A model generated the notes under the pieces. The model was not told the DNA's origin, made no database searches, and was given only the letters and a program-made list of their open reading frames with translations. DNA of 32,000 bases from Desulfatiglandaceae bacterium (GTDB taxonomy: Bacteria > Desulfobacterota > DSM-4660 > Desulfatiglandales > Desulfatiglandaceae), in the NCBI GenBank assembly GCA_049282265.1, contig JBAPTR010000162.1, positions 39,814-71,813 of the forward strand. The letters are read 5' to 3'. Below, in pieces: positions 11,317-32,000 of this stretch. The position numbers and the translations under genes were made by a program. How positions within the stretch are numbered: the stretch's first letter is position 1; each line of letters begins with the position of its first letter.

Positions 11317-12552
11317 ATGAGAAAAGATATCATCATTGCGGTTATGGCAGAGGAAAAGTGGGAAGAAGCGGAGTTCCTGCGCCGGCAAATTGAATCCTTC
11401 GGGCAAAGGGCCAGGATTATGGATATAAGTTTGCTGCAAGAACCCCCGGGGACCTGCCATATTGCCCGGGAAGAGGTTATCCGGGCCAGCGGCCGAATGC
11501 CTGACGAAGTGGCACTCGTATCGGATAGAGGGAAACGGATGCCCATCATGGTGGAAGGGGCCAGGAAAAAGGCACTCGATCTCTACTCCAAGGGAAATCT
11601 TGCGGGCATAATAGGCATAGGTGGAACTACAGGGACCCAAATGGGAACCGATATTATGAAGGTCCTCCCTTTTGGAGTCCCAAAATTGGCTGTTTCGAGC
11701 ACGGCATCAATTCCGGGACTTGCCACAAGATACATGGGGACAAAGGACATTACCCTCATGCACACGGTAGTGGAATTTACAGGGCTTAATGACTATATGA
11801 AAAATGTTCTGGCCAGGGCCGCCGGCGCTATTTGCGGAATGGTGGAAGGCTCTGCCCGTTTTCCCGTTTCCACGTCCAATAAGAGGGAAAGGCCCTTCAT
11901 TGCCATGACACAATTTGGGCCTTGCGAGGAATGTGCCGTAAACGTCAGGAAGCAGCTTGAACAGAAAGGCTACCAGATTGTGGCTTTTTCGGCCTCAGGT
12001 TCCGGCGACAGGGCCATGGAGGAAATGATAGAAAAACAGGATATGTTCCGTGCCGTAATCGATCTTGCCCCGGGTGGAGTGGGTGAAGAGCTGCTTGGTT
12101 TTGCAAGGGCGGCAGGTTCCACCCGATTGGAGGCCGCAGGCCAAAAAGGGATACCGCAAATTATCGCCACGAGCGGAGTCAATTTCGGCTCCCCATTCAA
12201 GCGAAGGTATAAGCCTGAATATGAATTTCGAAAAAAGTATGACTACGATGCAGCCCGCACCTTCATGAGGTTATCTCATGAAGAACTGACTCTGATCGCT
12301 CTCACCATTGCAGATAAGCTCAACAAGGCACAGGGTCCGGTAAAGGTAGTAGTCCCCATTGGTGGCTGGTCGTCGGTTGACAAGAGAGGATCTTCCTTCT
12401 ACGATGGAGTAGCAGACAGCGTATTCGTTAAGGCCCTTGAAAACCGACTGAGGCCGGATATCGAGATCACGAAAGTTGACGCAGACCTGGAAACTCCTGA
12501 ATTCGCCGGGGCGGTGGTAAACGCTGTTCTTGATATCTTGAGAAATAAATAG
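11317..12552 (+). CDS. UPF0261 / Tm-1-like ATP-binding domain protein (paralogue 2)
   Basis: 411 aa, colinear with 1847..3058. Its stop TAG (12550-12552) overlaps the GTG (12552) of the next gene as TAGTG. Confidence 0.7.
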   Translation: MRKDIIIAVMAEEKWEEAEFLRRQIESFGQRARIMDISLLQEPPGTCHIAREEVIRASGRMPDEVALVSDRGKRMPIMVEGARKKALDLYSKGNLAGIIGIGGTTGTQMGTDIMKVLPFGVPKLAVSSTASIPGLATRYMGTKDITLMHTVVEFTGLNDYMKNVLARAAGAICGMVEGSARFPVSTSNKRERPFIAMTQFGPCEECAVNVRKQLEQKGYQIVAFSASGSGDRAMEEMIEKQDMFRAVIDLAPGGVGEELLGFARAAGSTRLEAAGQKGIPQIIATSGVNFGSPFKRRYKPEYEFRKKYDYDAARTFMRLSHEELTLIALTIADKLNKAQGPVKVVVPIGGWSSVDKRGSSFYDGVADSVFVKALENRLRPDIEITKVDADLETPEFAGAVVNAVLDILRNK

Positions 12553-13604: not shown

Positions 13605-13938
13605 TCACATCGTGCTTTGACATTGGACTTTTTGACTGATCTCTTCTGCAGCCTGCCTTGTGCTCCTGATCACCATCTCCATTTTCTCCTCATTTACGCC
13701 TGTCTTGAATCCAACAGCCCAGATAGCGGATGGAATCTGATTCCAGCCCCTTATGGGCGCCGCCACGGCCCATACACCTGAAATATACTCCTCATAAATC
13801 AGTGGCGTATACCCTTTCCCTTGCCTGCGGTATCTCTTCAAAATATTGTTGTGGATTCGTTGTGCTATTCTCGGTGAAATGGGAAATTTCCATTTCCATG
13901 ATCATTTTTGTGCCATCGTTCATCTCGCTGAACATCAT
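13605..13938 (-). pseudogene. iclR remnant (internal deletion plus frameshift)
   Basis: The 78-aa ORF (..YEEYISGVWAVAAPIRGWNQIPSAIWAVGFKTGVNEEKMEMVIRSTRQAAEEISQKV) parallels the C-terminus of the intact IclR at 16303..17073. The remnant start codon (13916-13914) reads ATG GCA CAA AAA TGA. A 1-nt insertion (GATTTATGAGGAG vs GATTACGAGGAG) also breaks the frame. Confidence 0.75.
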
Positions 13939-14066: not shown

Positions 14067-14173
14067 ATGAATTATATGGTAGGTTCTTCATCCTGAACAG
14101 ACCAGATTATTACTCTTTTTCTACGGTCTTTATAAAGCTGACTTCAGCAAAAGCGGGGCGGAATGGATTACAG

Positions 14174-15109
14174 ATGATGGAGACAAAGACACCCAGTAAG
14201 CTGGAAAAAATCCTTGCGACAGGACATGTAGCCGTAACATCCGAATGCGGCCCTCCCAGGGGAAGTGATCCCGGAATCATTATCAAGAAGGCCGAATTGA
14301 TCAAGGACCATGTTGATGCCATTAATGTCACGGATAATCAGACAGCCATGACAAGGCTGTGCAGTCTGGCCTCAGTCGCTCACCTCAAGCTAATAGGCCT
14401 TGAGCCGGTCCTCCAGATGGTTGTGAGAGATCGGAATCGGATCGCACTCCAAAGCGATATCCTGGGGGCAGCCTCTTTTGACATTCATAATATGCTCTGT
14501 CTGTCCGGAGACCATCAAAAATTCGGCGACTGTCCTGACGCCCAGAATGTATATGACATCGATTCCATGCAGCTCATTCGCATGGCCAGGCACATGCGGG
14601 ATGAGGGAAAATTTGTGGGAGGAGATGAGATCAACCGACCACCCCGCATGTTCGTGGGTGCTGCGGCCAACCCTTTTGCCGACCCGTTTGAAATCCGCAT
14701 CCCTCGTCTCGCTAAGAAAATCGCGGCAGGGGCCGAGTTCATTCAAACCCAGTGTATCTATAATGTGGACAAATTTGAATTGTGGATGAAACAAGCGCGG
14801 GACCGGGGCCTCCACGAAAAGGTCTACATACTGGCAGGGATAACCCCGATAAGATCAGCCGGCATGGCAAGATACATGAAAAACCGCGTCCCCGGCATGG
14901 ATGTCCCGGATGAAACCATCAAGAGAATGAGCGGCGTATCTGCAAAGAAACAACCTGAGGAAGGGATTAATATTTGTGTGGAAACCATCCAAAGGCTGAA
15001 AGAGGTTGAAGGGGTCAGGGGGTTCCATATCATGGCAATAGAGTGGGAAGAAAAAGTCCCGGAGATCGTGGAAAGAAGCGGGCTTTATCCGAGACCGAAG
15101 ATAAGCTGA
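14174..15109 (+). CDS. metF: methylenetetrahydrofolate reductase, acetogen/anaerobe MetF type
   Basis: The start is set at ATG 14174 (MMETKTPSKLEKILATGHVAVTSECGPPRG...). The protein shows a MetF-like TIM-barrel pattern (INVTDNQ..., LCLSGDH, FVGAAANPF, GAEFIQTQ). The track's TTG 14039 extension is AT-rich promoter sequence. Confidence 0.8.
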   Translation: MMETKTPSKLEKILATGHVAVTSECGPPRGSDPGIIIKKAELIKDHVDAINVTDNQTAMTRLCSLASVAHLKLIGLEPVLQMVVRDRNRIALQSDILGAASFDIHNMLCLSGDHQKFGDCPDAQNVYDIDSMQLIRMARHMRDEGKFVGGDEINRPPRMFVGAAANPFADPFEIRIPRLAKKIAAGAEFIQTQCIYNVDKFELWMKQARDRGLHEKVYILAGITPIRSAGMARYMKNRVPGMDVPDETIKRMSGVSAKKQPEEGINICVETIQRLKEVEGVRGFHIMAIEWEEKVPEIVERSGLYPRPKIS

Positions 15110-15162
15110 ATTGTAATCCTCTAAAATTGTACGCGAATAGCGGTGGCAGGAGATGAAAACCC

Positions 15163-15549
15163 ATGTCCTATTTTGTGGTAAACGAAAACTGTAATGGATG
15201 CCTGGCGTGCGTGGAGAACTGTCCCGCAAACGCATTGAGATTTAAAGACACAGACGAAAACCGTACCATTTTGCATAATATGGCCAAATGCGTCAGGTGT
15301 GCCAATTGCTGGCGAGTCTGTCCTCAGCAGGCCATTGAATTCCAGCACTTTCTGGAAAACGAGTGGGACGAAGTCAAGTCCCTGGACCTGGTCCATTGCA
15401 GGGTTTGCGGTGAGCCCATTTACACCACAGACCTTGAAAAGACCTTGACCGGGAAAACAGGCAGTGAGATTGATGCCCTTTGCCCAAAACACAGGGAATT
15501 GGATTTCGCTGCCAGGCAGGCACTGGTCCCTTTCAGGAGGGCCGCATGA
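15163..15549 (+). CDS. 2x[4Fe-4S] ferredoxin-domain protein with a Cys-rich C-terminal extension
   Basis: CNGCLACVENCP and CVRCANCWRVCP motifs, then CRVCG...CPKH. AGGAGA RBS. Confidence 0.75.
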   Translation: MSYFVVNENCNGCLACVENCPANALRFKDTDENRTILHNMAKCVRCANCWRVCPQQAIEFQHFLENEWDEVKSLDLVHCRVCGEPIYTTDLEKTLTGKTGSEIDALCPKHRELDFAARQALVPFRRAA

Positions 15550-15562
15550 AGAGAGGTAAAAG

Positions 15563-16231
15563 ATGATCGTAGCTGATCTGAAACCTGTGGGTGAGATAGC
15601 CGAATCAATATCGCCATTTCAAAAAGTCTCCATAGTGGCCTGTGGAGGGTGTGTGTCCGTATGCCTCACCGGTGGCGCCAGTAGCGCCGATACCCTGGCA
15701 AGGGAACTCTCTCATCCCAGACATTACAAAGAGCGCCCGCCGATCCTCGCTACCACAACCATCCAGAGACAGTGTGAAAAAGATTTCGTTACGGCTTACC
15801 TCAACCTCCCCCGTGACACAGACGCCATTCTGTCAATGGCATGCGGTGCAGGAGTCCAGACCCTGGCTGAGATTTTCGGCAAGGTCCCTATTCTCCCGGC
15901 CCTCAATACCAGCTTCCTTGGATCGTTGGACGAGCCGGGGGTGTGGCGCGAAAAATGCCAGGGGTGTGGAAGCTGTGTGCTGGCCTTTACCGGGGGTATA
16001 TGCCCTGTTACCCGATGTGCCAAGCACCTCCTCAATGGTCCCTGCGGCGGTTCAAGTAACGGCAAGTGCGAAATAAGCAAAGACGTCGATTGTGCCTGGC
16101 AGTTGATCATAGACCGGCTCAAGGCACTCGGCAGACTCAATGACTATGAAAAAATCTTTCCCATCAAGGACTGGTCATCAGACCGGGGGGGAGGCCCCCG
16201 GTCAATGCAGTTCTCCAGTAAAAAAACCTGA
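15563..16231 (+). CDS. metV: MetV-like protein (methylenetetrahydrofolate reductase C-terminal domain family)
   Basis: CPVTRCAKHLLNGPCGGSSNGKCEISKDVDCAW matches the MTHFR_C/MetV signature (..NGPCGG...G.CE...). It follows metF, as in the MetFV systems of anaerobes. Confidence 0.75.
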   Translation: MIVADLKPVGEIAESISPFQKVSIVACGGCVSVCLTGGASSADTLARELSHPRHYKERPPILATTTIQRQCEKDFVTAYLNLPRDTDAILSMACGAGVQTLAEIFGKVPILPALNTSFLGSLDEPGVWREKCQGCGSCVLAFTGGICPVTRCAKHLLNGPCGGSSNGKCEISKDVDCAWQLIIDRLKALGRLNDYEKIFPIKDWSSDRGGGPRSMQFSSKKT

Positions 16232-16302
16232 TGGGTGGAGCATTTATAAAATCGGGGTAGCGCCAAAGTCTAAACCGGGAAATAAACAAGAAGGAAAGCC
16301 TG

Positions 16303-17073
16303 TTAGATTGTTCTTTGACATTCGACTTTTTGACTGATCTCTTCAGCTGCATGCTTTGTGTTCCTGATCAGCGTCTCCATTCCCTCTTCATTCTGGCCTG
16401 TCTTGAACCCAACGACCCAGATGGCTGATGGGACCTGCTTCCAGCCCCTTATGGGCGAAGCTACTGCCCATACGCCTGAAAGATACTCCTCGTAATCAGT
16501 GGCGTATCCCATCTGCCTTGCCTGCTTGATCTCTTCAATATAACGCTGTGGATCCGTTATGCTATTCTCGGTAAACTGGGGAATTTCATTTTCCATGATC
16601 ATTTCTCTGCATCGTTCCTCCTCCATTGACGCCAGTATTACCTTGCCGGCAGCCCCTGCAAAGAGTGGGATTCTCGATCCTTTCGGTGATGTGATATTGA
16701 GATCATGCCTTGAATCCACCACATCCAGGATCGTGATACGCCTTCCATTGAGCACGCCAATGTAAGTCGTTTCCCCGGTCTTCTCATTGAGTTCTTCCAG
16801 AATAGGCCTCGCCAGATCCTTGAGATCAATCTGGGAATAGGCCCGCCTGCCCAGTTCAAAGAGGGTCAATCCAAGGGTGAATTTTCTTGTTCTGGGGTCA
16901 CGCAAAATGGCCCCCAGTTCTTCCAATGCGGAAGCTACACCGTGGACTGTGCCTTTGCTCATCTCCAGTGCATTTGCCAGATCGCTGAGCCCTAATCCGT
17001 CGATTGACTTCGAGATGAGTTGCAAGATCTCAAAAGCCTTTCCTACCGCAGGAGCCTGATATTTTCGCGCCAT
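16303..17073 (-). CDS. IclR-family transcriptional regulator (intact copy)
   Basis: 256 aa with an N-terminal wHTH (AVGKAFEILQLISKS..GLGLSDLANALEMSKGTVHGVASALEE) and a C-terminal IclR effector domain. Confidence 0.9.
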   Translation of the reverse strand: MARKYQAPAVGKAFEILQLISKSIDGLGLSDLANALEMSKGTVHGVASALEELGAILRDPRTRKFTLGLTLFELGRRAYSQIDLKDLARPILEELNEKTGETTYIGVLNGRRITILDVVDSRHDLNITSPKGSRIPLFAGAAGKVILASMEEERCREMIMENEIPQFTENSITDPQRYIEEIKQARQMGYATDYEEYLSGVWAVASPIRGWKQVPSAIWVVGFKTGQNEEGMETLIRNTKHAAEEISQKVECQRTI

Positions 17074-17191
17074 TGTTCACCTCGCTGAACGTCTTACGTT
17101 TTTAAACCTTTAAGAAAATCCTGTCAACCAGGAAAATGGTCGTACCAAGAAATGATATAGCACCTTATAATTCAACGTTTCCATCACTTTT

Positions 17192-17219
17192 TTGACAATA
17201 TTTTCTTTTCTGCTATTGT
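17192..17219 (+). promoter_or_regulatory. candidate promoter (copy B), now positioned to drive the hdrA-like/AOR operon
   Basis: TTGACA, a 16-nt spacer ending in TGC, then TATTGT. Homologous to the copy A promoter. Confidence 0.4.
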
Positions 17220-17292
17220 GTGAATTATCTTATGAGTTCGTCATTCCGAACAAAGCAGATTATTGCTCTTTTTGGAGCCAACGGGATTGCAG

Positions 17293-17540
17293 ATGAGTGA
17301 GACAAAGACACCCAGTAAGCTGGAAAAACCTTGCGGCAGGCCATTTAGCGGTGACATCCGAATGCCACCCTCCCAAGGGAAGTGATCCCGGAGTCATTAT
17401 CAAGAAGGCCAGATTTATCAAGGATCATGCTGACGCTATTGATGTCACGGACAACCAGACGGCAGTGACCAGGTTGTGCAGTCTGGCCTCGGGAATCCAC
17501 CTCAATGCATTGGGCCTTGATCCAGTCTTCCAATTGGTGT
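17293..17540 (+). pseudogene. metF 5' fragment (2-nt deletion frameshift, truncated after ~95 codons)
   Basis: ATG 17293 reads MSETKTPSKLEK as in metF, then loses frame: GGAAAAACCTTGCG here vs GGAAAAAATCCTTGCG in copy A. The homologous frame (LAVTSECHPPKGSDPGVIIKKARFIKDHADAIDVTDNQTAVTRLCSLAS..) ends where similarity stops near 17540. Confidence 0.75.
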
Positions 17541-17648
17541 TGACGGCCGACATCCGTTGGGATAGTCTAAGTTTGAAAAGCTTACATCTTGCTGTGTCAT
17601 GAACATTTCAATTCGGGAAAATACTTTATCCCATAGAGGTCCGTACAA

Positions 17649-18950
17649 GTGGAGCAAAAAGCTGTACTCATTATAGGCGGAGGCATAGCGGGCATTCAGG
17701 CCTCAATAGACTTAGCGGACATGGGCATTAAGGTCTATCTGGTGGAGAAGAAGCCAAGCATTGGTGGGCGCATGGCGCAGTTGGACAAGACCTTTCCCAC
17801 AAATGACTGTTCAATGTGTATCCTGGCCCCAAAGATGATTGAGTGCAAAAACCATGAAAACATTCAACTTCTGACCTATTCAATGCTGGATGAGATTAGT
17901 GGTGAGGTGGGTCGATTCAAGGCCAAGGTTATAAAAAAGGCCCGTTTTGTAGAGGAAGACAAATGCGTGGGATGCGGCGAATGTGCTGAAAAATGTCCGA
18001 CAAAGGTGCTTGATGATTTCAATGCCGGGCTGGGCAAGAGAAAAGCGATTTACAAATATTTTCCCCAGGCGGTTCCTTCCACCTACGTCATAGATCCTGC
18101 TTATTGTCGGACTTTGAACGGGAAAAAGTGCGGCGTCTGTGAGAAAATATGCAAGGCAAGGGCTGTCAATTACAAGCAGAAAGATCAGGCTCTGATCCTT
18201 GATATAGGTGCGGTTATTCTGGCGACCGGCTTTGATCTGTACGATGTGGCCCCACTGAAGGAGTATGGTTGGGGTAGGATAGACAATGTCATTACCGCAA
18301 TGCAGTTTGAGAGGATGATATGCGCATCCGGTCCGAGCGGTGGACATTTGAAACGCCCATCCGATGAAAAGGAGCCCTCAAGACTCGCCTTTATTCAGTG
18401 CGTAGGATCAAGAGATATCCGGCACAAGAGATATTGTTCGGCGGTCTGTTGCATGCATGCCACAAAAGAGGCCATACTGGCCCATGAGCATTACCCTGAT
18501 TTGACATCAACCATATTCTATATGGATATGAGGGCCGTGGGAAAGGGCTTCCAGGATTATGTTCACCGGGCAAGGGACCAGTATGATGTTGAATATGTGC
18601 GCGCAAGGCCGGGGAGGGTTACCGAAAATGAGGAAAATCAAAACCCTATTATCCATTATGAGGACACGGTAAGGAGGGAGCTTAACGCAAGGGAGTTTGA
18701 TATGGTCATCCTGTCTCAGGCCCTCATACCGACTGAAAGCAATGTTTCAATTGCCAAAAAGCTGGGCATAGACTTGGATGAATTTGGGTTTATTTCAACG
18801 CCGGAAAAACTGGCTGATCCGTTCGGCACCACGAGAGACGGTATCTTCGGATGCGGTTTTTGTCAGTCTCCAATGGATGTTCCGGATTCAGTTGTAAGGG
18901 CGTCGGCAGCGGCCTCAAAGGCGGCTGAAGTACTTTCACTAGGTGTATAA
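17649..18950 (+). CDS. HdrA-like FAD / Fe-S flavoprotein (module 1)
   Basis: GTG start. It has the FAD fold LIIGGGIAGIQASIDLADMG, the FPTNDCSMCIL motif, an inserted ferredoxin (CVGCGECAEKCP ... CGVCEKIC) and the CSAVCCMHATKEA motif typical of HdrA. Confidence 0.8.
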   Translation: MEQKAVLIIGGGIAGIQASIDLADMGIKVYLVEKKPSIGGRMAQLDKTFPTNDCSMCILAPKMIECKNHENIQLLTYSMLDEISGEVGRFKAKVIKKARFVEEDKCVGCGECAEKCPTKVLDDFNAGLGKRKAIYKYFPQAVPSTYVIDPAYCRTLNGKKCGVCEKICKARAVNYKQKDQALILDIGAVILATGFDLYDVAPLKEYGWGRIDNVITAMQFERMICASGPSGGHLKRPSDEKEPSRLAFIQCVGSRDIRHKRYCSAVCCMHATKEAILAHEHYPDLTSTIFYMDMRAVGKGFQDYVHRARDQYDVEYVRARPGRVTENEENQNPIIHYEDTVRRELNAREFDMVILSQALIPTESNVSIAKKLGIDLDEFGFISTPEKLADPFGTTRDGIFGCGFCQSPMDVPDSVVRASAAASKAAEVLSLGV

Positions 18951-18964
18951 GGAAAGATGTCAGC

Positions 18965-20677
18965 ATGGCACTAAGGATAGGCATTTTTGTATGCCACTGC
19001 GGTACAAATATAGGTGGGATCGTTAATGTCCCCGAGGTTGTTGAGTATGCTCGGAAGTTGCCGAACGTAGTATGTGCCGAGGGAAACCTATACACATGCT
19101 CAGAAGACGGTTTATCCGGGATTCGATACAAGATAAAGGAATATGACCTTAATAGGGTAGTGGTGGCCTCCTGCACGCCTCGGACACATGAGATGCTTTT
19201 TCGAAAGAATTGCGAACAGGCTGGCCTCAATAAGTACCTGTTTGAATTTGTCAATCTGAGGGAGCAATGCTCCTGGGTCCATATGGAAGATCATGATGGC
19301 GCAACAGAAAAGGCAAAGGATCTGGTTCGCATGGGAGCCTGCAAGGTCAGTTTGTTGAACCCCTTGGAGGACATCGCCTCAGAAGTAATAGGGGCATGTA
19401 TGGTGATTGGAGGGGGCATCTCCGGCCTTTCCGCCTGCCTGACGCTGGCCAACCAGGGCTATCAGGTTGAATTGGTCGAGAAAAAAGATATACTGGGTGG
19501 GCTGTTAAGAGATATAAACAGGGTTTTTCACACCAATGAGCCCTCTTCAGACCTCTTGGATCCTTTGATCAATTCTGTGCTAACGCATGATAATGTCACG
19601 GCCCACCTAAAGACGGAACTGCTTGGTGTTAAAGGGTTTATTGGCAACTTCACGGCCACGTTAAAGAAAGGCCTTCGGACGCAAGAATTGAAAATAGGCA
19701 CGATTATCGTCTCCACCGGCGCGAGCGAACTCAAGCCGGAGGGAAGCTTTGGGTATGGACAGTTTGATAATGTAATGACACAACTGGATTTCGAAAAGAG
19801 ATACAAATCCGATTACAAGGACCTGAACCGGATCGTGATGATAAACTGCGTGGGTGCCAGGGTGGATGAAAGGACCTATTGTGGCAGATTCTGCTGCATC
19901 ACCGCTATAAAGAATGCCATTTTAGCGAAAGAGGCCAATCCCGGAGCAGAGGTGAGCATATTGCATCGAGACATTATGGCCTGTGGATCGGTCTTCGAGG
20001 ACTACTACCGGGGGGCCTTGAAGGTGGGGATCAGGTTCATCCGGTATAATGCCGATCGGCCTCCAGTGATCTTGGGTAATGGTAATGTGGTTGAGAGGGT
20101 CAAAGTCTACAATGAGCTGGTTGGAAGAGATATTGAATTGGATGTGGATGCTGTTCTGTTGACAACGCCGCTTGTGCCGGGGGAGGATACACGGCAACTT
20201 TCCAGGATAATGAAAATACCGGTTGGAAATGACGGGTTTTTCCTGGAGGCACATCAAAAACTCAGGCCGGTTGAGTTCCCTTCGGACGGTATCTTTATTG
20301 CCGGATGCGCGCGTTATCCCACAGAAATATCAGAATGCATTGCCCAGGGGTATGCGGCAGCAGCCAAGGCGGCGGTCCCCATGGCCCAAGGCCGGGTTAT
20401 CAGCGATGCATTTACTTCGGAGATTGACCCACTGAGGTGCTCTGCCTGCGGGAGATGTATAGAAATCTGTCCTTTCGGGGCTATTGACTGGACTGATTGG
20501 GAAGACCCATCCGGAACAATAAGGACAGTGGCCTTGGTAAACCCCACGGAGTGTAAGGGATGTGGGCTATGTGTGGCCTCCTGCCTCAGCGGTGCTATGG
20601 ACCTAAAAGGATTCAGTGATGAACAGATCCTGGCAATGGTCAGTTCCATGGTGGAAATAACAAGCCAGGTTGCTTAA
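18965..20677 (+). CDS. HdrA-like flavoprotein (module 2) with an N-terminal Cys-rich domain and a C-terminal 2x[4Fe-4S] ferredoxin domain
   Basis: The N-terminus (IGIFVCHCGTNIGG...ASCTPRTHE...REQCSWVH) is followed by a second FAD fold (MVIGGGISGLSACLTLANQG). Then come CGRFCCITAIKNA and the C-terminal CSACGRCIEICP / CKGCGLCVASC motifs. Confidence 0.8.
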   Translation: MALRIGIFVCHCGTNIGGIVNVPEVVEYARKLPNVVCAEGNLYTCSEDGLSGIRYKIKEYDLNRVVVASCTPRTHEMLFRKNCEQAGLNKYLFEFVNLREQCSWVHMEDHDGATEKAKDLVRMGACKVSLLNPLEDIASEVIGACMVIGGGISGLSACLTLANQGYQVELVEKKDILGGLLRDINRVFHTNEPSSDLLDPLINSVLTHDNVTAHLKTELLGVKGFIGNFTATLKKGLRTQELKIGTIIVSTGASELKPEGSFGYGQFDNVMTQLDFEKRYKSDYKDLNRIVMINCVGARVDERTYCGRFCCITAIKNAILAKEANPGAEVSILHRDIMACGSVFEDYYRGALKVGIRFIRYNADRPPVILGNGNVVERVKVYNELVGRDIELDVDAVLLTTPLVPGEDTRQLSRIMKIPVGNDGFFLEAHQKLRPVEFPSDGIFIAGCARYPTEISECIAQGYAAAAKAAVPMAQGRVISDAFTSEIDPLRCSACGRCIEICPFGAIDWTDWEDPSGTIRTVALVNPTECKGCGLCVASCLSGAMDLKGFSDEQILAMVSSMVEITSQVA

Positions 20678-20734
20678 CCCTGGCTCTCAAATACCTTGAG
20701 TGTCACATATCCTTGAAGACAAGGAAGATACAAC

Positions 20735-21262
20735 TTGAAAAGGGAAGACATCGATCCCATAGAAAATGAGCAGGCGGGCGAGATCAAAACAAGGATCACG
20801 ACCCTCATAGAGAAAAATAACCTGTATTTCTGTTTGGAGTGCGGGAAGTGCTCGGCTGTTTGTCCCATGCTGGAATTCTACGGGAGTTATGTCTATGATC
20901 GTTCCCCCAGGGCGGTGGTGGAGCGCCTGTCGTTTGACCCCGAAGGGTTCGACGATGAGGCTTTGTGGTATTGCCTGGCGTGCCAGGAGTGCACTTTTTT
21001 CTGTCCGTCCGGGGTAGACTTTCAGGACTTCACGATAGCATTGAGGGCGCTCTTGCTGAGGCATGGATTCAAGAAGTATGCGCTTTTTTGTCCCGTTTGC
21101 GGCACTTATATTATGCCGAAAAAGGAGTTTGAAAATTTCCAAAAAACCATGAATGACGAAAAAATCGGTGAGCTTCTATCTGTATGTCCTCGGTGTAAAA
21201 CCACCGGTTATGTTGAGATATTGCATCGGGTTGCCCCCATACAGAAAAGGCCAAAAAGGTAA
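20735..21262 (+). CDS. HdrC-like 2x[4Fe-4S] protein with a C-terminal zinc-ribbon extension
   Basis: CLECGKCSAVCP and CLACQECTFFCP, then CPVCG-x29-CPRCK. The start is a TTG with AGGAAG upstream, so the exact start is uncertain. Confidence 0.6.
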   Translation: MKREDIDPIENEQAGEIKTRITTLIEKNNLYFCLECGKCSAVCPMLEFYGSYVYDRSPRAVVERLSFDPEGFDDEALWYCLACQECTFFCPSGVDFQDFTIALRALLLRHGFKKYALFCPVCGTYIMPKKEFENFQKTMNDEKIGELLSVCPRCKTTGYVEILHRVAPIQKRPKR

Positions 21263-21300
21263 ACCCCCCAAATATTTATTTTCATGGAAAGGAGCGTATC

Positions 21301-21594
21301 ATGGCAATAGAAAATGAAAGATTGTCATCGGCAGAAACCCTGCGTAAGACCAGGACCTATGGCAAGGTCAGGTGTCACAATCCCAGCTGCATGGAACGGA
21401 TCGAGCCGCCTGCCGGGGCGGATCATGTCAAATGTCCCACCTGTGGTATGGAGTATCGTATTTTCTGGGTCAACCCCAATCTTCCAAGGATACGGGGTCC
21501 GGTTTGGGACGTGAACCGGAAGATAGCCCAAGAGGCTCTTGCCGGGGAAAAAACAACAACATCGAAAAAAGCGACAAAGAAGGGAGGGAAGTAA
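21301..21594 (+). CDS. small zinc-ribbon protein with a Lys-rich tail (unknown function)
   Basis: 97 aa with AAAGGAG 6 nt upstream of the ATG. It has CHNPSC-x14-CPTCG and a tail KTTTSKKATKKGGK. Its stop lies 1 nt before the AOR start. Confidence 0.55.
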   Translation: MAIENERLSSAETLRKTRTYGKVRCHNPSCMERIEPPAGADHVKCPTCGMEYRIFWVNPNLPRIRGPVWDVNRKIAQEALAGEKTTTSKKATKKGGK

Positions 21595-21595
21595 G

Positions 21596-23536
21596 ATGGC
21601 TCTGGATCGAAAGATTGCTTACATTGATCTCACCACCGGTGAAATTGAGACCAAGCCTATCCCGCTCGAGTTGAGGAAGAAATTTCTGGGCGGAAGGGGC
21701 CTTGATGCCTATCTATTGTATAACAATACGAAAAAGGGATGTGATCCGCTTGGCCCTGGGAATACCCTGATGGTAAGTGGTGGGATATTGTCCGCCACCT
21801 GCGCCTCAGCCACTGCCAGAACACACATCATGGCGAAATCTCCCCTTACAGGCCTGCTTGGCAGCGCAAACATGGGAGGATTCTTTGCGCCGGAACTTGC
21901 TTGGGCCGGCTTTCATCATCTCGTCATCAAGGGGAAAGCGGAAAAGCCGGTCTATATCTGGATCCATAACGGGGAGATTGAGATTCGGGACGCCGCTCAA
22001 CTGTGGGGAAAAACCACCACAGAGACCCAGTGGGCCATTCGAGAAGAACTGGGTGATGAAGACATCAAAAGCGCGGTCATCGGCCCTGCCGGCGAAAACC
22101 TGGTAGCCTTTGCAAATGTCATGACCGGCATAAAGAACGCTGCAGGAAGAACCGGCATGGGCTGCGTCATGGGCTCAAAAAACCTGAAAGCCATCGCTGC
22201 CAGGGGTACTATGGATGTCAAGATTGCCCATCCTGTTGAGGCCCTTGAATACAACAAGCGCTTCATAAATCAGATCGTCAGCGCAAAGGTAAACCAAACC
22301 CAGGGAGCACTCGGAACACCATTCATCTGGGGGGCAACCAACTCCTGGGGCGGGATAAGGTGCAGGAACTTCCAGTACAACCAGCTTGAAAACGCCGACG
22401 ACATTGAACCTGAGGCAATTGACGACGTATGCAATGAGACAATGGGCCCACACCACATGACCGGCTGTTTTGGCTGCCAGGTCCATTGCCGCGCACAATA
22501 CAAGATTCCATCCGGTCCCTATGCTGGAAAATATGATGAAGGCCCTGAGTACACCTCACAGGGTGCATTTTGTGGAGAGCCGGAATGCAGGAGCATGGAA
22601 ACGCTGCTGACCGGTAATCACCTGGTGGATCAGTTTGGCATGGACAACCTTGAAACGGGGAGCATCATCTCATGGGCCATGGAGCTGTATGAGCTTGGTA
22701 TCCTGAGCAGCAAGGATACCGACGGCCTTGATCTGAGATTCGGCAATGATGAAGCTCTCCTCGAGATGGTAAAGCGAATCTGCTACAGAAAAGGCTGGCT
22801 GGGAGATGCCCTTGCCGACGGTGGCATTCCCGCGTCTGAAAAGATAGGAAAGCATTCCTTTGACTATCTGATCCAGGTGAAAGGGATGAACAATCTCCAT
22901 TCCGATGAAAGAGCCACCCCTGGGCTGGCATTGAACATTGCCACGGCCTCCAGGGGATCCGACCATCTGAGGAGCCGGCCCGCCATAGACCTTTATCACC
23001 TGCCCGAGGAAGTGCTCAGGAAGATTTACAGCAACCCTGTACCCTACGACGGCCCCCTGAGTTCTGAACACACTTCCTACGAGGGAAAGCCATGGCAGGT
23101 CTTCTGGCAGGAAAACTGTTATATGGCGGTAGATTGCCTTGGGATCTGCAAATATCACACAACGTTCCTGGGAGCCACGCTCCCTAATTTCGAGGACTGG
23201 CCCAAGGTGCTCTACTACAACACAGGCATCGAAATGACCCCAAGAGAAATCTGGGATGTCGCTCTAAGATGCAATATCATGGAAAGGCTCTTTAATCTCA
23301 GAGAAGGCCTCTCGAGAGAAGACCTCAAGAAAGGCGACATGCTGAATCACCGCTATTTTGATGAGCCTTGCAGGCGTGGAGCCCGGGATGTGATTGGTTT
23401 GAAGATAGACAGAAAGAAGTTTAAGAAAATGATCGATGAATTCTATGAGCATCATGGCTGGGATGAGAATGGTATTCCCACGCCAGAGACGTTAAAAAGG
23501 CTTGATGTGCATAAAGAGCCTTCACACCTGCTTTAG
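21596..23536 (+). CDS. aldehyde:ferredoxin oxidoreductase (AOR) family tungsto-/molybdopterin enzyme
   Basis: The start is set at ATG 21596 (AGGGAGGGAAG upstream). The N-terminus is MALDRKIAYIDLTTGEIETKPIP..LGGRGL. It carries the GMGCVMGSKNLKAI block and the Fe-S motif CFGCQVHC, at ~646 aa. The 19-aa Lys/Arg-rich upstream extension in the track is rejected. Confidence 0.9.
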   Translation: MALDRKIAYIDLTTGEIETKPIPLELRKKFLGGRGLDAYLLYNNTKKGCDPLGPGNTLMVSGGILSATCASATARTHIMAKSPLTGLLGSANMGGFFAPELAWAGFHHLVIKGKAEKPVYIWIHNGEIEIRDAAQLWGKTTTETQWAIREELGDEDIKSAVIGPAGENLVAFANVMTGIKNAAGRTGMGCVMGSKNLKAIAARGTMDVKIAHPVEALEYNKRFINQIVSAKVNQTQGALGTPFIWGATNSWGGIRCRNFQYNQLENADDIEPEAIDDVCNETMGPHHMTGCFGCQVHCRAQYKIPSGPYAGKYDEGPEYTSQGAFCGEPECRSMETLLTGNHLVDQFGMDNLETGSIISWAMELYELGILSSKDTDGLDLRFGNDEALLEMVKRICYRKGWLGDALADGGIPASEKIGKHSFDYLIQVKGMNNLHSDERATPGLALNIATASRGSDHLRSRPAIDLYHLPEEVLRKIYSNPVPYDGPLSSEHTSYEGKPWQVFWQENCYMAVDCLGICKYHTTFLGATLPNFEDWPKVLYYNTGIEMTPREIWDVALRCNIMERLFNLREGLSREDLKKGDMLNHRYFDEPCRRGARDVIGLKIDRKKFKKMIDEFYEHHGWDENGIPTPETLKRLDVHKEPSHLL

Positions 23537-23632
23537 GTTGTTTTGACCTGCAAAAATAGGTCGAACCCATTTTGGGGAAAACCGAAACCAGATCCTTTGG
23601 AACTGGGTTCTCTGCTTGAGAGGAGGAAATCA

Positions 23633-24130
23633 ATGGAGAAAATCTTGATGATAAATTACCAGAAGTGCACCGGCTGCCGTTTGTGTGAGCTCGTGTGCAC
23701 TGTAATGCATGACGGGGTTTCAAACCCTTCCAGAAGCCGGATAAAGGTAATGAAATGGGAATCGGAGGGGCTGTATATCCCAATGGCCTGCCAGCAGTGT
23801 GATGATGCCCCCTGCATGAATGTATGCCCGGTCAAGGCAATCTCGCGTGACGAGGATTTTGGCTTTCTTACAGTAGATTACGACCTGTGCATTGGGTGCC
23901 GTTCCTGTGTGGCGGTATGCCCCTTTGGTGCTATGAATTATAACGTGATCGACAAGAAGGTCTTCAAGTGCGACCTTTGCGGTGGAGATCCTCAGTGTGT
24001 GCGGTTTTGCGAGGAAAAGGCCGTTGATTATGTTGACGCCGACAGGGTAAGCATATTTAAGAAAAAAGATGCAGCAAAAAGATTGTCTGTTGCACAAAAG
24101 GAGACCATGTGTTTGCAGGTGGCCGTATGA
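23633..24130 (+). CDS. 4x Cys-cluster polyferredoxin (DmsB/AorA/BamC-like electron-transfer subunit)
   Basis: AGGAGG 6 nt upstream of ATG 23633. Motifs: CTGCRLCELVC, CQQCDDAPCMNVCP, CIGCRSCVAVCP and CDLCGGDPQCVRFC. Confidence 0.85.
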   Translation: MEKILMINYQKCTGCRLCELVCTVMHDGVSNPSRSRIKVMKWESEGLYIPMACQQCDDAPCMNVCPVKAISRDEDFGFLTVDYDLCIGCRSCVAVCPFGAMNYNVIDKKVFKCDLCGGDPQCVRFCEEKAVDYVDADRVSIFKKKDAAKRLSVAQKETMCLQVAV

Positions 24131-24260
24131 TCAATACCCCAGGCTTCTTCATGGCCTTTCTTTTGCCCTTATTATAATAGGGGAGCAGTTTGGCCCTTTG
24201 AAAGAATCCTTGTGGGATGCCACACCCCTGAGGGGATTCTTCTAAAGGTACACTTCCGTC

Positions 24261-24315: not shown

Positions 24316-25776
24316 TTGATTGGAAATAGAGGTCGAGAGATAACAGTGGACGCAGATAGAATTGAATTGCTTTCAGTTGGTGTAGACGTGGGAACCTCTA
24401 CAAGCCACCTGGTTTTTTCAAACCTGGTATTGGAAAGGGATCCGAAATCCCCTACCAAACGTTTTCAAATCAAGGAAAGAAACATCATTTATGAGGGAAA
24501 AATAGTAGATACCCCGATGCTGGACAAGAATACAATTGATGTGGAAAGGCTCTCCGGCTTTTTTGAGGAAGAATATAAGCGAGCGGGAATTGACGCCGGA
24601 GATATTCAAAGTGGCGCGGTTATTGTAACTGGAGAAATGGCCAAAAAAGACAATGCAAAGCAAATAGTAGAGGCATTGTCAAACGGGGCGGGAAATTTTG
24701 TCGCAGCAACAGCAGGGGCAAATTTCGAAAGCCTATTAACAGCAATGGGTTCAGGGGCGGTAGATAGATCAAAGCGATACAACAAGACAATATTGTCCTG
24801 CGACATCGGCGGAGGAACATCGAACATCGCCATATCAAAGAATGGACGGGTTCTGTCAACAAGCTGCATATCTGTAGGGGGCAGATTACTTGGTGTAAGT
24901 TCTGAAGGAAGGATTTGGAAGATCGATGAACCTGCAACGGAAGTTATGAAAGAGATTGGGTTGCATTACAAAATCGGTGACAAAATCCCGGAAGAGGATA
25001 TTGGAAGCATAGCAACAAGGTTTGCCGAAATATTGATTGAGGTCATTACCGGTCCGGCCGCTTCCCCTTTGGCCAAGCGGTTAATGATGACTGATGATCC
25101 GGATTTTCCAGGCAGAATAGATGAATATATGTTTTCAGGGGGTGTCGCAGAGTTGATATACGGGGGTAATGGCAGTTACAAGGATATGGGAAAGATTTTA
25201 GCCGATAAAATAAATTCGTTGATACCGAAATTGACTGCTCCGGTTATAGAGCCTGAAAACAAGATCAGGGCCACCGTTATTGGAGCAGGTGCATATTCAT
25301 TATCCATTTCCGGCTCATCCGGATTCATGGATAACAAAATTTCATTTCCCATAAGAAATATTCCCGTAATCAGGGTCGATATCGATGATTCGCAATTGAG
25401 CCGTGATCACATTATATCTCAGATAAATGTCGCATTTAGAAGATTTGACAAAAACGAAGGCGAAGAAATTGTTGCATTATATTTCAAAAACCCGGCCAGG
25501 GCTTATTATCCCGAATTAGAGTTGTTTGCGAAATCTATTGAAGCCGCTCTTCCCAATTCGATTGATAATAGAATACCGATTATATTGATATTTGAAAAAG
25601 ACATCGCATGCGGGGTGGGGAATGTCATCCGCCGGGAAACCGGATTGAAAACAAATTTCCTGTCATTAGATGAATTGATTTTGAAAGAAGGAGATTGGAT
25701 CGATATTGGTGAGCCACTGGTTAACGGTCAGGTGTTTCCCGTTACGGTAAAATCTCTTATTTTCAATAGGAACTAG
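24316..25776 (+). CDS. EutA-like ATPase (ethanolamine ammonia-lyase reactivase family, ASKHA fold)
   Basis: LLSVGVDVGTSTSHLVFS... and SGAVIVTGEMAKKDNA...FVAATAGANFESLLTAMGSGA are colinear with E. coli EutA as I recall it. The start is ambiguous: TTG 24316 or GTG 24346. GTG 24346 gives an EutA-like N-terminal length. Confidence 0.75.
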   Translation: MIGNRGREITVDADRIELLSVGVDVGTSTSHLVFSNLVLERDPKSPTKRFQIKERNIIYEGKIVDTPMLDKNTIDVERLSGFFEEEYKRAGIDAGDIQSGAVIVTGEMAKKDNAKQIVEALSNGAGNFVAATAGANFESLLTAMGSGAVDRSKRYNKTILSCDIGGGTSNIAISKNGRVLSTSCISVGGRLLGVSSEGRIWKIDEPATEVMKEIGLHYKIGDKIPEEDIGSIATRFAEILIEVITGPAASPLAKRLMMTDDPDFPGRIDEYMFSGGVAELIYGGNGSYKDMGKILADKINSLIPKLTAPVIEPENKIRATVIGAGAYSLSISGSSGFMDNKISFPIRNIPVIRVDIDDSQLSRDHIISQINVAFRRFDKNEGEEIVALYFKNPARAYYPELELFAKSIEAALPNSIDNRIPIILIFEKDIACGVGNVIRRETGLKTNFLSLDELILKEGDWIDIGEPLVNGQVFPVTVKSLIFNRN

Positions 25777-25900
25777 GGCCCCTTTCCGGTTTCCGCCGGG
25801 ACAGAAGCCCGACGGGCAGGAGATGTCCTGTAAAGCTTCGCCCCTTTTGCTTTTGAAGGTAGCAGCTTATCTTGTTGTGTTAGCCAGGGAACGGAAAAAA

Positions 25901-30645: not shown

Positions 30646-30918
30646 TCACCCGCCGGCCAGCATAACGGTTATATAAATCTCATCCCCGTCCCGGACCGGC
30701 TTTGCCAGTTCTTCCGGATAAGCACTTTCCAGGTTTACATAAATCTCCATATTGTTACGCAGCTTTTCTCTTTTTTCGAACAATACTTCTCTAAAGGCGG
30801 GGTATCGGCCCACCAGTTGGTCAAGACATTGGCCGACTGTACTTCCGTCCACTTCAACCTTGCTCAAGCCATCCATATATTGACGATGCGTTTTATGAAT
30901 ATTAATTATGATACTCAT
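30646..30918 (-). CDS. MoaD/ThiS-family ubiquitin-like sulfur-carrier protein
   Basis: 90 aa ending in ...DGDEIYITVMLAGG (C-terminal Gly-Gly). AAAGGAG RBS. Confidence 0.8.
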   Translation of the reverse strand: MSIIINIHKTHRQYMDGLSKVEVDGSTVGQCLDQLVGRYPAFREVLFEKREKLRNNMEIYVNLESAYPEELAKPVRDGDEIYITVMLAGG

Positions 30919-31120: not shown

Positions 31121-32000
31121 ATGCTCTTACCAAAATTCCGTTACCATGAACCTGCCACGCTGGAAGAGACCTGCGAGATGATGGCGGATCTGGGAAACCG
31201 GGCCAGGCTCCTTGCCGGTGGAACCGACCTCATCGTCAATATGAAAAAAAAGATCCTTGATCCCGAACACGTGGTGTTCCTGGGAAGGATTGAAGAACTC
31301 AAGGGAATCGATTCACACGACGGCACCATCAGAATCGGTGCCCTGATGACTGTGGCCGAGATTGCCGAATCCCCGGACATCAAGACCCCATTGCCCGCCC
31401 TTGCCCACGGTGCCTCCGTCCTGGGATCGCCCCTAATCAGGAATCTGGCCACTGTGGCGGGGAACCTGGTATCGGCCAGACCCGCCGCCGACCTCCCCCC
31501 TTCACTCATGGCCTACGCGGCCAAAGTTGTTCTCCGAAAAAAGGACCGCAAAAGGCAAGTCCCCTTGAAAGATTTTATCCAGGGTCCGGGCAAAACCGCC
31601 ATGGAGCCCGAGGAAATCCTCACGCATATTGTGCTCGACAGACCCCCTGCCGGCAGTGGGGCCGCCTACATCAAACTGGGGAAACGCAAGGCTCTCGAAA
31701 TATCCCTGGTGAACGTGGCCTCTTATCTTTCGCTGGACGAATCCGATGATTCTGTTGCTTCGGCCCGTATCGTCATGGGCGCCGTCGGTCCAACGCCCCT
31801 GCGGGCGACGTCCGCCGAGAAACTCCTGATCGGTGAAAACCCCTCCCAGCAGCTCTTTGAACGGGTCGGCGAGGCAGCGGGGCTGGAGAGCCGGCCCATA
31901 GACGATTTCAGGGGGTCGGCGGAATACCGCCGTGCCATGGTCAAAGTACTCACTGAAAGGACACTCAGGGCGGCCTATGAGCTGGCCCGGGGTTCATTGT
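31121..32000 (+). CDS. FAD-binding subunit of a xanthine-dehydrogenase/CO-dehydrogenase-family molybdenum hydroxylase (CoxM/HcrB-like), 3'-truncated by the window edge
   Basis: The frame is open from ATG 31121 to the window end (293 codons): MLLPKFRYHEPATLEETCEMMADLGNRARLLAGGTDLIVNMK...GSPLIRNLATVAGNL...FRGSAEYRRAM. It is absent from the ORF track because no stop lies in the window. Confidence 0.85.
   Translation, partial: MLLPKFRYHEPATLEETCEMMADLGNRARLLAGGTDLIVNMKKKILDPEHVVFLGRIEELKGIDSHDGTIRIGALMTVAEIAESPDIKTPLPALAHGASVLGSPLIRNLATVAGNLVSARPAADLPPSLMAYAAKVVLRKKDRKRQVPLKDFIQGPGKTAMEPEEILTHIVLDRPPAGSGAAYIKLGKRKALEISLVNVASYLSLDESDDSVASARIVMGAVGPTPLRATSAEKLLIGENPSQQLFERVGEAAGLESRPIDDFRGSAEYRRAMVKVLTERTLRAAYELARGSL

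Follow-up and report, generated by a model that had tools for sequence, protein, structure and literature searches.

A candidate HdrA-coupled tungsten enzyme from a new AOR-family clade encoded next to phenol-activation genes in a Desulfatiglandaceae bacterium

We analyzed a stretch of 32,000 nucleotides (nt) from a Desulfatiglandaceae bacterium (assembly GCA_049282265.1, contig JBAPTR010000162.1, positions 39,814 to 71,813; hereafter the window, whose own numbering is used throughout) by open reading frame (ORF) listing combined with Pfam and NCBIfam scans. The subject of this work is a block of six plus-strand genes at 17649–24130 that encodes two HdrA-like flavoproteins, an HdrC-like protein, a small zinc-ribbon protein, an enzyme of the aldehyde ferredoxin oxidoreductase (AOR) family, and a polyferredoxin. 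The first product, HdrA433 (17649–18950; 433 amino acids, aa), aligns with residues 145–567 of a methanogen HdrA (5odc_A) with 464 bits, and the second, HdrA570 (18965–20677; 570 aa), matches HdrA residues 5–238 and 318–650. They are followed by HdrC175 (20735–21262; 175 aa), a 2x[4Fe-4S] protein with a C-terminal CxxC...CPxC ribbon that matches Fer4_8 (2e-11) and Fer4_17, stays under the cutoff of HdrC models (1e-10 to 5e-11), and is without a CCG domain, and by a 97-aa Cys4 zinc-ribbon protein with a basic tail (21301–21594) that falls into no Pfam or NCBIfam family. The ribbon gene stops 1 nt ahead of the start of the AOR gene (21596–23536), which encodes a 646-aa pterin (tungsten) catalytic subunit of the AOR/WOR family (AFOR_N 3e-76, AFOR_C 4e-100). 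The last gene (23633–24130) encodes a polyferredoxin of the WorS/AorA/BamC small-subunit type with four Cys motifs for four clusters, 165 aa long from the ATG (the start called in public assemblies), which matches Fer4_11 and Fer4_7 and is similar to YdhY/HydN-type models. Intergenic gaps across the block are 1–96 nt, and 38–57 nt around hdrC; the best promoter-like site upstream lies at 17192–17219 (+; matching the consensus at 10 of 12 positions, with a TG extension), and a terminator-like hairpin lies past the polyferredoxin gene at 24141–24157 (+), both being consensus matches only. Because of the tight spacing and these two sites, we propose that the region from 17.2 to 24.2 kilobases (kb) is read as a single operon.

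Three further plus-strand genes lie upstream and encode a MetF-type methylenetetrahydrofolate reductase-like flavoprotein (14174–15109; PF02219, 7e-36), a 2x[4Fe-4S] ferredoxin with a C-terminal CxxC...CP ribbon that we term Fdx128 (15163–15549; Fer4_7, 5e-14), and a MetV-like Fe-S protein (DUF5981; 15563–16231; PF12225, 2e-37). An earlier note on this DNA had named these genes and those of the hdr-AOR block, all of which we recover at the positions and with the sizes and motifs that it gave. It had also placed the block downstream of metF-fdx-metV; the genes are indeed there, but they are not contiguous with the block, since a divergent IclR gene and a 575-nt spacer intervene. The IclR-family regulator (16303–17073, minus strand; HTH_IclR and IclR_C) is divergent from the hdr-AOR operon and resembles the PcaR/PcaU/PobR subfamily at a level below cutoff. 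The spacer between it and the first hdrA holds a truncated 5' remnant of metF (17284–17538, ORF 17297–17602, +) whose DNA is 82.5% identical over 257 nt to 14165–14421. Both the regulator and the truncated metF copy had been missed in the earlier note. The two top promoter-like matches of the region, again by consensus only, lie at 14039 before metF and at 17192 in the spacer before hdrA433. A tblastn search of the whole window with FlpD/MvhD, CCG, NuoE, NuoF, and BamI-like probes matched only generic ferredoxin motifs, which bears out the earlier statements that no HdrB, MvhD, or NuoEFG-like genes are present and that the locus fits neither MetFV-HdrABC-MvhD nor the full Bam template, as homologs of HdrB, MvhD/BamF, and NuoEF are missing from the window.

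A scan with one genome per species found relatives of the AOR in 254 genomes. The best 80 of these 254 relatives are 82–91% identical to the window AOR and all come from metagenome-assembled genomes, labeled as Desulfobacteraceae, Desulfatiglandales, Syntrophaceae, or Olavius symbionts with a few bins labeled otherwise; pairwise identity within the family is 78–98%, with a median of 83%. Neighboring genes were counted by tblastn and all-against-all ORF clustering at 81 loci (79 species loci from the genome scan, L005 and L006, plus the window). The polyferredoxin gene lies downstream of the AOR gene in 74 of the 81 loci, the gene for the small ribbon protein directly upstream of it in 65, and an IclR gene beside them in 54. 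The conserved unit consists of the 97-aa ribbon protein, the AOR, and the polyferredoxin, which we refer to as the trio and in which the ribbon protein is a putative third subunit.

For the active site, the sequences of PfAOR, AmWOR1-L, and GmBamB were rebuilt from HMMER alignments, that of GmBamB (4z3w) being read off its alignment to the genuine BamB in L068, and were aligned with 79 family members. The AFOR_N and AFOR_C architecture, the [4Fe-4S] ligands, and the pterin-binding residues of AOR sensu stricto are present: Cys291, Cys294, Cys298, Cys518, Arg75, Asp345, and Asp513 align with Cys288, Cys291, Cys295, Cys494, Arg76, Asp338, and Asp489 of PfAOR. The Cys ligands, Arg75, and Asp513 are conserved in all 79 members, and position 345 is Asp in 62 and Asn in 17. 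AOR sensu stricto is defined by a second-shell tetrad of Thr, Glu, Tyr, and His, and BamB and YdhV by a Cys ligand (PMC12096430, PMC13328260), namely Cys322, which coordinates tungsten and is conserved throughout BamB and YdhV (PMC12096430). In the column of Cys322 our family has Asp314 (78 Asp, 1 Glu; the register is uncertain by about one residue), and there is no Cys in the loop 299–325. The BamB relay loop with Glu251, His255, Glu257, and His260 is absent from the family, Gly246 standing in the His260 column, and Trp245 of the window, equivalent to BamB Trp259, is the sole residue shared in the Zn/proton-relay region. Identity is 29% both to GmBamB and to the genuine BamB ortholog of L068; D. 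anilini BamB is 80% identical to that of Geobacter (PMC6114531). The earlier suggestion of a BamB-type enzyme therefore fails at the level of sequence, and we reject orthology to BamB on the 29% identity and the absence of Cys322 and of the proton relay. A Cys pair, C326/C331, was also considered as a family feature and rejected, as the pair is not conserved; Cys508 is invariant and family-specific.

The same alignment bears on an alternative in which the enzyme is a bifurcating or confurcating aldehyde oxidoreductase, that is, a Class IV-like WOR with an HdrA-type module that oxidizes aromatic aldehydes (e.g., 4-hydroxybenzaldehyde) or reduces acids and splits the electrons between ferredoxin and a second carrier. 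Among solved structures the window AOR is most similar to PfAOR (1aor; 312 bits, 34% identity) and AmWOR1-L (9mqx; 309 bits), compared with 215 bits and 29% for BamB, and besides all cluster and pterin ligands it keeps the AOR-type residues Thr243, His448, Glu311, and Tyr312 (the Thr and His of the tetrad being Thr241 and His457 here). The other two tetrad residues, Glu313 (the proposed proton acceptor) and Tyr427 (substrate positioning), are replaced by Thr320 and Ser436 in 79 of 79 family members, whereas characterized AORs show only single conservative changes at the two positions (PMC12096430). Bifurcating aldehyde-oxidizing WORs are known (PMC12318220, PMC13328260), and trio loci that carry an NADH-oxidase-like flavoprotein and a second polyferredoxin recall AorABC; on the other side, genes of an alcohol or aldehyde pathway are missing from the window, and such strong sequence conservation together with dedicated IclR control would be unusual for a broad-range detoxifying enzyme. 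We consider an aldehyde oxidoreductase unlikely. Because Glu313 and Tyr427 are replaced throughout the family, membership in AOR sensu stricto is rejected, which agrees with the earlier view that this is no ordinary aldehyde oxidoreductase. Judged from its residues, the family appears to be neither canonical AOR nor BamB and fails both definitions.

The earlier note had likened the two HdrA modules to a split double HdrA, each with a C-x2/3-CC-x4-K signature. Both carry C-x3-CC-x4-K, and comparison with methanogen HdrA (5odc, 8rvu) showed that their domains are complementary. HdrA433 covers residues 145–567, the thioredoxin-reductase-like flavin core with the inserted two-cluster ferredoxin domain, and has neither the N-terminal domain nor the C-terminal ferredoxin domain, whereas HdrA570 has the N-terminal cluster domain, a flavin core, and the C-terminal 2x[4Fe-4S] domain and lacks the inserted ferredoxin domain. 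HdrA433 retains the motif DKTFPTNDCSMCILAPKM (Cys54, Cys57; DKTFPTNDCSxCILAPKM) and CC-x4-K (Lys273); HdrA570 shows NRVFHTNEPSSDLL where HdrA has TNDCSxC, so that the Cys pair is missing, and retains CC-x4-K. Of the two, only HdrA433 combines CxxC with CC-x4-K. BamE is a fused HdrA dimer with the hallmarks of bifurcation (the Cys59-Cys62 disulfide and Lys280) at its first flavin site only, with clusters E1 and E2 in the C-terminal ferredoxin domain, E5 and E6 in the inserted ferredoxin domain, E4 and E7 beside the two flavin adenine dinucleotides (FADs), and E3 beside the disulfide (bioRxiv 10.64898/2026.04.10.717634). The distribution of motifs over HdrA433 and HdrA570 matches that over the bifurcating TrxR1 and the non-bifurcating TrxR2 of BamE, as far as BamE can be compared by its published description. 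On the same comparison, HdrA433 and HdrA570 together appear to amount to BamE in split form, with a complement of two FADs and seven Fe-S clusters, where E3 would correspond to the cluster of the N-terminal domain. Both halves occur in unchanged order within a single protein of 1034–1039 aa in L059 and L078, where HdrA433 aligns to residues 22–443 (46% identity) and HdrA570 to residues 468–1023 (41%). In these two loci the fused HdrA lies beside genes resembling FlpD with a helix-turn-helix domain, NuoE, NuoF, and the NuoG N-terminus, a BamEFGHI-like set, and this set is located directly upstream of an AOR trio whose AOR is 83–84% identical to that of the window.

The order HdrA433-HdrA570-HdrC-small ribbon protein-AOR-polyferredoxin is collinear in about ten species genomes. 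A reciprocal metagenome scan with HdrA433 returned 51 loci. About 20 of those with enough flank have this same order, many with a GltD insertion, and about 12 contain the HdrA pair and HdrC with no AOR (L097, L099–L104, L106, L107, L109, L111, and L133). In four of these AOR-free loci (L106, L107, L109, and L111) an MvhD-like gene follows the HdrA pair and HdrC, and in L111 (9001–17692) so do Flx-like Fe-S and NAD(P)H-binding subunits and an FAD_binding_5 protein, a set that, by its gene content, appears to be a split-HdrA version of Flx-Hdr-type complexes. Since the pair also accompanies MvhD and a Flx-like module at AOR-free loci, the split HdrA core is a general-purpose bifurcation module that was recruited to the AOR trio and is not exclusive to it. 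The GltD insertion is a GltD/NfnB-like domain (Fer4_20 and Pyr_redox_2, about 460 aa) that lies inside the inserted ferredoxin domain of HdrA433 orthologs, lengthening them to about 896 aa (L014 4675–7365; L021; L005 4257–6947; L112–L123) and putting an NAD(P)H site on what is usually the ferredoxin arm.

Comparison across genomes revealed that the slot between the IclR gene and the ribbon gene is occupied by different modules, which we group into four types. Type A consists of HdrA433, HdrA570, and HdrC, with the GltD/NfnB-like insertion in several genomes. Type B consists of MetV and Fdx128, with MetF added in only five genomes including the window. Type C, found at 23 loci, is a membrane protein of 341 aa that has helices at its N-terminus and a two-cluster domain at its C-terminus, and type D is an NADH-oxidase-like flavoprotein accompanied by a second polyferredoxin. 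The window combines types A and B. At about 19 species loci MetV lies beside the trio, in most cases with no MetF, and orthologs of MetF that are 82–91% identical are found within the AOR operon of L008, L009, L010, and L020. These sister genomes have the order IclR (minus strand), MetF, ferredoxin, MetV, small ribbon protein, AOR, with no Hdr genes, and the metF stub of the window lies at exactly the position of their metF. In L089–L091, whose HdrA433 is 97% identical, Fdx128 and MetV are kept and no intact MetF was found. A MetFV-Hdr complex is argued against because MetFV and Hdr alternate at one slot in sister genomes, and MetFV as an Hdr partner, as the earlier note had placed it, is ruled out by synteny (the shared slot, the IclR gene in between, and the missing MetF in close relatives). 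The best reading is that MetF-fdx-MetV, of which metF is the first gene, is an alternative electron module of the same enzyme that was kept after a rearrangement that left the metF stub. The region between ubiX and hdrA (window 17284–17538 and 13607–13907) is prone to rearrangement, as, apart from the metF stub, several intergenic segments recur at other positions in the 97%-related contig L091.

These data also bear on the alternative that the block holds independent neighbors, in which MetFV and the Hdr-like proteins would either serve the Wood-Ljungdahl pathway, as is the case in acetogens, or take part in a Qmo/Flx-like redox loop, with the AOR unrelated. MetFV-HdrABC-MvhD complexes are established in acetogens, the metF remnant lies directly upstream of hdrA433, and the HdrA pair with HdrC has an AOR-free form that adjoins MvhD and a Flx-like NAD(P)H module. 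Set against this are the swapping of Hdr and MetFV modules in the one slot upstream of the AOR trio, the collinearity of HdrA433 orthologs with the trio in about 20 independent metagenome loci, the closest relatives without MetF, the IclR gene between metV and hdrA, and the short gaps of 1 nt between ribbon gene and AOR and of 38–57 nt around hdrC. We regard independent neighbors as very improbable.

Three proteins of the slot modules share an element. Residues 78–175 of HdrC175 are homologous to the C-terminus of the type C membrane ferredoxin (E value 3e-10), as is Fdx128 (1.5e-14), while HdrC175 and Fdx128 match each other directly at only 1.8e-4. All three have a common ending composed of CxxCG, 20–25 residues, CPxC[KR], and a basic tail. 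We infer that this ferredoxin-plus-ribbon element may be a docking or electron-transfer adaptor to the trio.

A phenol-activation cluster lies directly upstream of MetF. It includes phenylphosphate-synthase-like PpsA (4286–6154) and PpsB (whose ORF ends at 7359), a UbiD protein that passes the curated cutoff for phenylphosphate carboxylase subunit beta (7498–8901), an aryl-CoA (coenzyme A) ligase (9603–11264), and, up to 13542, UbiX together with a UPF0261 and an LpdD-like protein, and the window contains a candidate gene for every step from phenol to 4-hydroxybenzoyl-CoA. Genes of the phenol pathway also flank the trio in L006/L007, L010, and L029, and partly in L008/L009 and L089–L092. L068 has bamC and a genuine bamB, which scores 820 bits against 4z3w, immediately upstream of its trio, and other trio loci repeatedly contain genes for thiolase, CoA ligase, enoyl-CoA hydratase, and acyl-CoA dehydrogenase. 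HcrB-like (FAD_binding_5/CO_deh_flav_C) and HcrC-like (Fer2/Fer2_2) genes are encoded just past a ThiS gene, at about 31121–32000 of the window and beyond (L088 11965–13324), but no HcrA-type large subunit of the xanthine-oxidase family lies within 10 kb of them; the phenol cluster of Desulfatiglans anilini includes the alpha subunit (PMC6114531). The HcrB/C-like genes could be remnants or a further electron-transfer module. From this context the enzyme probably acts in the phenol/4-hydroxybenzoate branch. It is because the HcrB/C-like genes are present and an HcrA-type subunit is missing within 10 kb that we propose 4-hydroxybenzoyl-CoA, although this particular substrate is a doubtful choice on context. 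An HcrB-like gene recurs in L010, where a 154-aa ORF follows it. Two paralogous UPF0261 genes belong to the phenol cluster (1847–3058 and 11317–12552), and an LpdD-like gene lies beside ubiX. The phenol clusters of L006, L010, and L029 also contain UPF0261, and those of L006 and L010 the LpdD-like gene, which was not detected in L029. This recurrence suggests accessory roles in the carboxylation step.

Our favored reading, to which we give an even chance, is that the locus encodes an HdrA-driven tungsten enzyme of a new catalytic clade that resembles class II benzoyl-CoA reductase, with the substrate suggested by context and the wiring by analogy. The six products would form a single complex, a cytoplasmic multi-subunit pterin (tungsten) enzyme in which the AOR, the four-cluster ferredoxin, and the 97-aa ribbon protein would make up the catalytic unit and would be coupled to an HdrA-type bifurcation core built from two complementary half-HdrAs. 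HdrA433 would hold the bifurcating flavin and, in its inserted ferredoxin domain, what is the low-potential arm in known HdrA systems. From HdrA570 would come the N-terminal cluster domain, the C-terminal ferredoxin domain, and a second flavin core that is probably structural, and the HdrC-like protein, without the CCG (HdrB) half, would complete the core. By analogy with class II benzoyl-CoA reductase, low-potential electrons would leave the bifurcating flavin by way of the inserted ferredoxin domain, reach the tungsten site over the polyferredoxin, and there drive a difficult reduction, while the high-potential electron would leave via HdrC175 to an acceptor. The substrate would be an aromatic acyl-CoA of the phenol/4-hydroxybenzoate branch.

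Several observations weigh against this reading. The homology of HdrC175 to the membrane ferredoxin and Fdx128 implies that the trio may dock on the HdrC arm and not on the inserted ferredoxin domain. The commonest partner of the trio elsewhere is the membrane-anchored ferredoxin without HdrA (the 23 type C loci), and such loci are hard to square with a constant need for electrons of super-low potential. The window variant has no evident electron-input module, as MvhD/BamF, NuoEF-like genes, and a GltD insertion are all missing, and the HdrA core is not exclusive to the trio, as the AOR-free loci show. The AOR is closer overall to aldehyde oxidoreductases than to BamB and keeps the AOR-type residues named above, and the source names of its family are all "aldehyde ferredoxin oxidoreductase family protein" or similar; the ribbon protein family, of 623 clusters, bears only the source name "hypothetical protein" or automatic zinc-finger or zinc-ribbon labels. 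Only about 10% of trio loci adjoin phenol genes. Finally, full-text literature searches on the topic, with reading of selected papers (including PMC7500099, PMC6129605, PMC1924859, PMC5109826, PMC5946492, PMC13101534, and PMC13416013), turned up no description of this AOR clade, of an HdrA-coupled AOR outside class II benzoyl-CoA reductase, or of a tungsten-dependent 4-hydroxybenzoyl-CoA reductase.

Some of these points fit the same complex working with opposite energetics. The AOR trio would then replace HdrB on the high-potential HdrC arm, an exergonic reduction (e.g., dehydroxylation of 4-hydroxybenzoyl-CoA) would pull bifurcation, and the HdrA433 insert would reduce ferredoxin, or NAD(P)+ in the GltD variants, so that energy is conserved. 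HdrC175 is encoded directly upstream of the trio and its C-terminus is homologous to its slot-mates, the membrane ferredoxin and Fdx128, while HdrB is absent from the window; yet in the sole solved analog it is the inserted ferredoxin domain that carries the tungsten module, and BamD is found on the E4/HdrC side (bioRxiv 10.64898/2026.04.10.717634). The 23 loci with membrane ferredoxin only fit a substrate couple compatible with the quinone pool, but L059 and L078 hold a BamEFGHI-like set together with a membrane ferredoxin, which fits the latter as a high-potential exit. MetF- and MetV-type partners work around -200 mV, as is generally known of MetFV enzymes, and the GltD variants place an NAD(P)H module inside the inserted ferredoxin domain; a donor module is not evident in the window under this wiring, for which the redox potential of the substrate is a guess. 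Adaptor homology and the abundance of quinone- and MetV-linked versions support the opposite wiring nearly as well as the favored wiring is supported; as an explanation of the locus as a whole we hold it to be rather improbable.

The favored reading can be placed among known systems, of which class II benzoyl-CoA reductase of Geobacter metallireducens (BamBCDEFGHI, with the composition Bam[(BC)2DEFGHI]2; 4z3w is BamBC, and bioRxiv 10.64898/2026.04.10.717634 gives the entire complex by cryo-EM) is the nearest in design. Like the window, it combines an AOR-family pterin subunit, a polyferredoxin, and a double HdrA-type flavoprotein with one hallmark flavin site, has an HdrC-like two-cluster element on the other arm, and belongs to aromatic catabolism, and relatives of the trio are encoded beside BamE/F/G/H/I-like genes (L059, L078) and beside bamBC (L068). 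The differences are that BamB has Cys322 and the Glu251/His255/Glu257/His260 loop, whereas the window AOR has neither and keeps AOR-type Thr243 and His448; that BamC has three cluster motifs and the window polyferredoxin four; that BamE is one polypeptide and its equivalent here two genes; that BamD has CCG domains, both of which are missing from the equivalent HdrC175 with its added zinc-ribbon tail; and that BamF and BamGHI are lacking and the 97-aa ribbon subunit is added. We propose by this comparison that the design principle is that of a BamBC-BamE-BamD core with a different catalytic clade and without BamF/BamGHI.

With the AORs and WORs (PfAOR, 1aor; AmWOR1 WorABCSL, 9mqx; Aromatoleum AorABC, 8c0z) the locus has in common the AFOR_N/AFOR_C fold, the [4Fe-4S] ligands and pterin residues, and the WorL-WorS pairing, the 34% identity being the highest to any solved structure, and this group provides precedent for bifurcating (Class IV) and NAD-linked (Class III) enzymes. 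In the window, in contrast, Glu313 and Tyr427 are Thr and Ser, an HdrA-type module stands in place of WorABC (NuoEFG/HydABC-type), and an extra ribbon subunit and dedicated IclR control in aromatic-degradation contexts are found; relative to Class IV WorABCSL, WorL- and WorS-like subunits are present and NuoE/F-like genes were not found in the window. HdrABC-MvhAGD of methanogens and FlxABCD-HdrABC of sulfate reducers share the HdrA core with TNDCSxC and CC-x4-K (both in HdrA433), the N-terminal, inserted, and C-terminal Fe-S domains, and an HdrC-type protein. They differ in that here the HdrA domains are spread over two polypeptides, which would form an obligate heterodimer in place of a homodimer, HdrB and MvhD are absent from the window, and the terminal enzyme is a pterin enzyme. 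MetFV-HdrABC-MvhD of acetogens likewise has MetF, MetV, and Hdr-like genes in one neighborhood, but in the present case MetFV and Hdr are alternatives and not partners, HdrB and MvhD are lacking, and MetF is dispensable in close relatives. QmoABC, which joins two HdrA-like flavoproteins to a QmoC bearing a haem-b domain in the membrane and is linked to aprAB, has a similar layout of two HdrAs; HdrC175 has no membrane domain, no aprAB lies near, and the match to the qmoC model is weak (1e-07, 31 bits vs a cutoff of 300).

The conserved neighborhood extends past 24130. A EutA-like double-ASKHA ATPase (24346–25776, +; PF06277 1e-135, under the EutA equivalog cutoffs) is found near the trio in 28 of the 81 loci, a conserved protein of 455–481 aa without Pfam or NCBIfam match (25823–27268, +) in 18, and a ThiS/MoaD-like small protein that probably belongs to pterin cofactor synthesis (30646–30918, minus strand; PF02597 2e-06) in 24, and MoaA, MobB, MoeA, and MoeB pterin-cofactor genes often adjoin the trio, for example together with the MoaD/ThiS-like gene. 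No ethanolamine lyase lies near the EutA-like ATPase, and the 455–481-aa protein has a Rossmann-like N-terminus and a GCSFC motif; the two could be a maturation or reactivation system for the tungsten enzyme. Between them and the ThiS/MoaD-like gene lies a gene for a 489-aa protein with an N-terminal membrane domain (29157–30626) that scores 178 bits against the reductive dehalogenase family TIGR02486 (curated cutoff 160). In type B loci a shortened AOR paralog of 517–555 aa, with an intact N-terminal domain and partial C-terminal domains, is encoded divergently upstream of the trio with a second polyferredoxin (L027 7210–8763, minus strand; L062, L071, L079). The gene for SelB, the selenocysteine elongation factor, adjoins the membrane-ferredoxin version of the locus in L030 and L077. 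A molybdopterin-oxidoreductase gene of the Mo/W-bisPGD family (about 682–695 aa) recurs near the trio and bamB (L068 3907–5955, minus strand; L029, L061, L063), and the one in L029 has its own polyferredoxin.

Within the AOR/WOR family, non-aldehyde chemistry and a drive by HdrA-type bifurcation are each known so far only from class II benzoyl-CoA reductase (PMC13328260), and the 2026 classification of tungsten oxidoreductases recognizes bifurcating Class IV enzymes solely in combination with WorABC or in the form of Bam complexes and mentions HdrA for BamD and BamE only (PMC13328260). An AOR-family enzyme driven by an HdrA-type module is therefore already known from that reductase; what is new here is the catalytic clade and the modular partner system. 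As a tentative extension that we rate clearly below an even chance, the trio may represent a widespread new clade of tungsten enzymes, mainly in Desulfobacterota, that reduces aromatic CoA esters in a non-aldehyde reaction, e.g., as a tungsten-dependent 4-hydroxybenzoyl-CoA reductase that replaces molybdenum HcrABC in strict anaerobes, and to which plug-and-play electron modules (split or fused HdrA, MetV/MetF, quinone-linked membrane ferredoxin, and NAD-linked flavoprotein) dock via the ferredoxin-plus-zinc-ribbon adaptor. The half-HdrA heterodimer would be a minimal, genetically separated BamE and could let the roles of the two flavin sites be separated experimentally, and a single catalytic unit with at least four electron-delivery modules, in which the HdrA core is split, fused, or NAD(P)H-inserted, would be a natural experiment in modular wiring. 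If the favored reading is true, a second and far more widespread clade would use the same kind of coupling as class II benzoyl-CoA reductase, the design would be a general solution and not a one-off, and the enzyme would be a candidate for an unassigned step by which sulfate reducers and syntrophs degrade aromatic compounds without oxygen.

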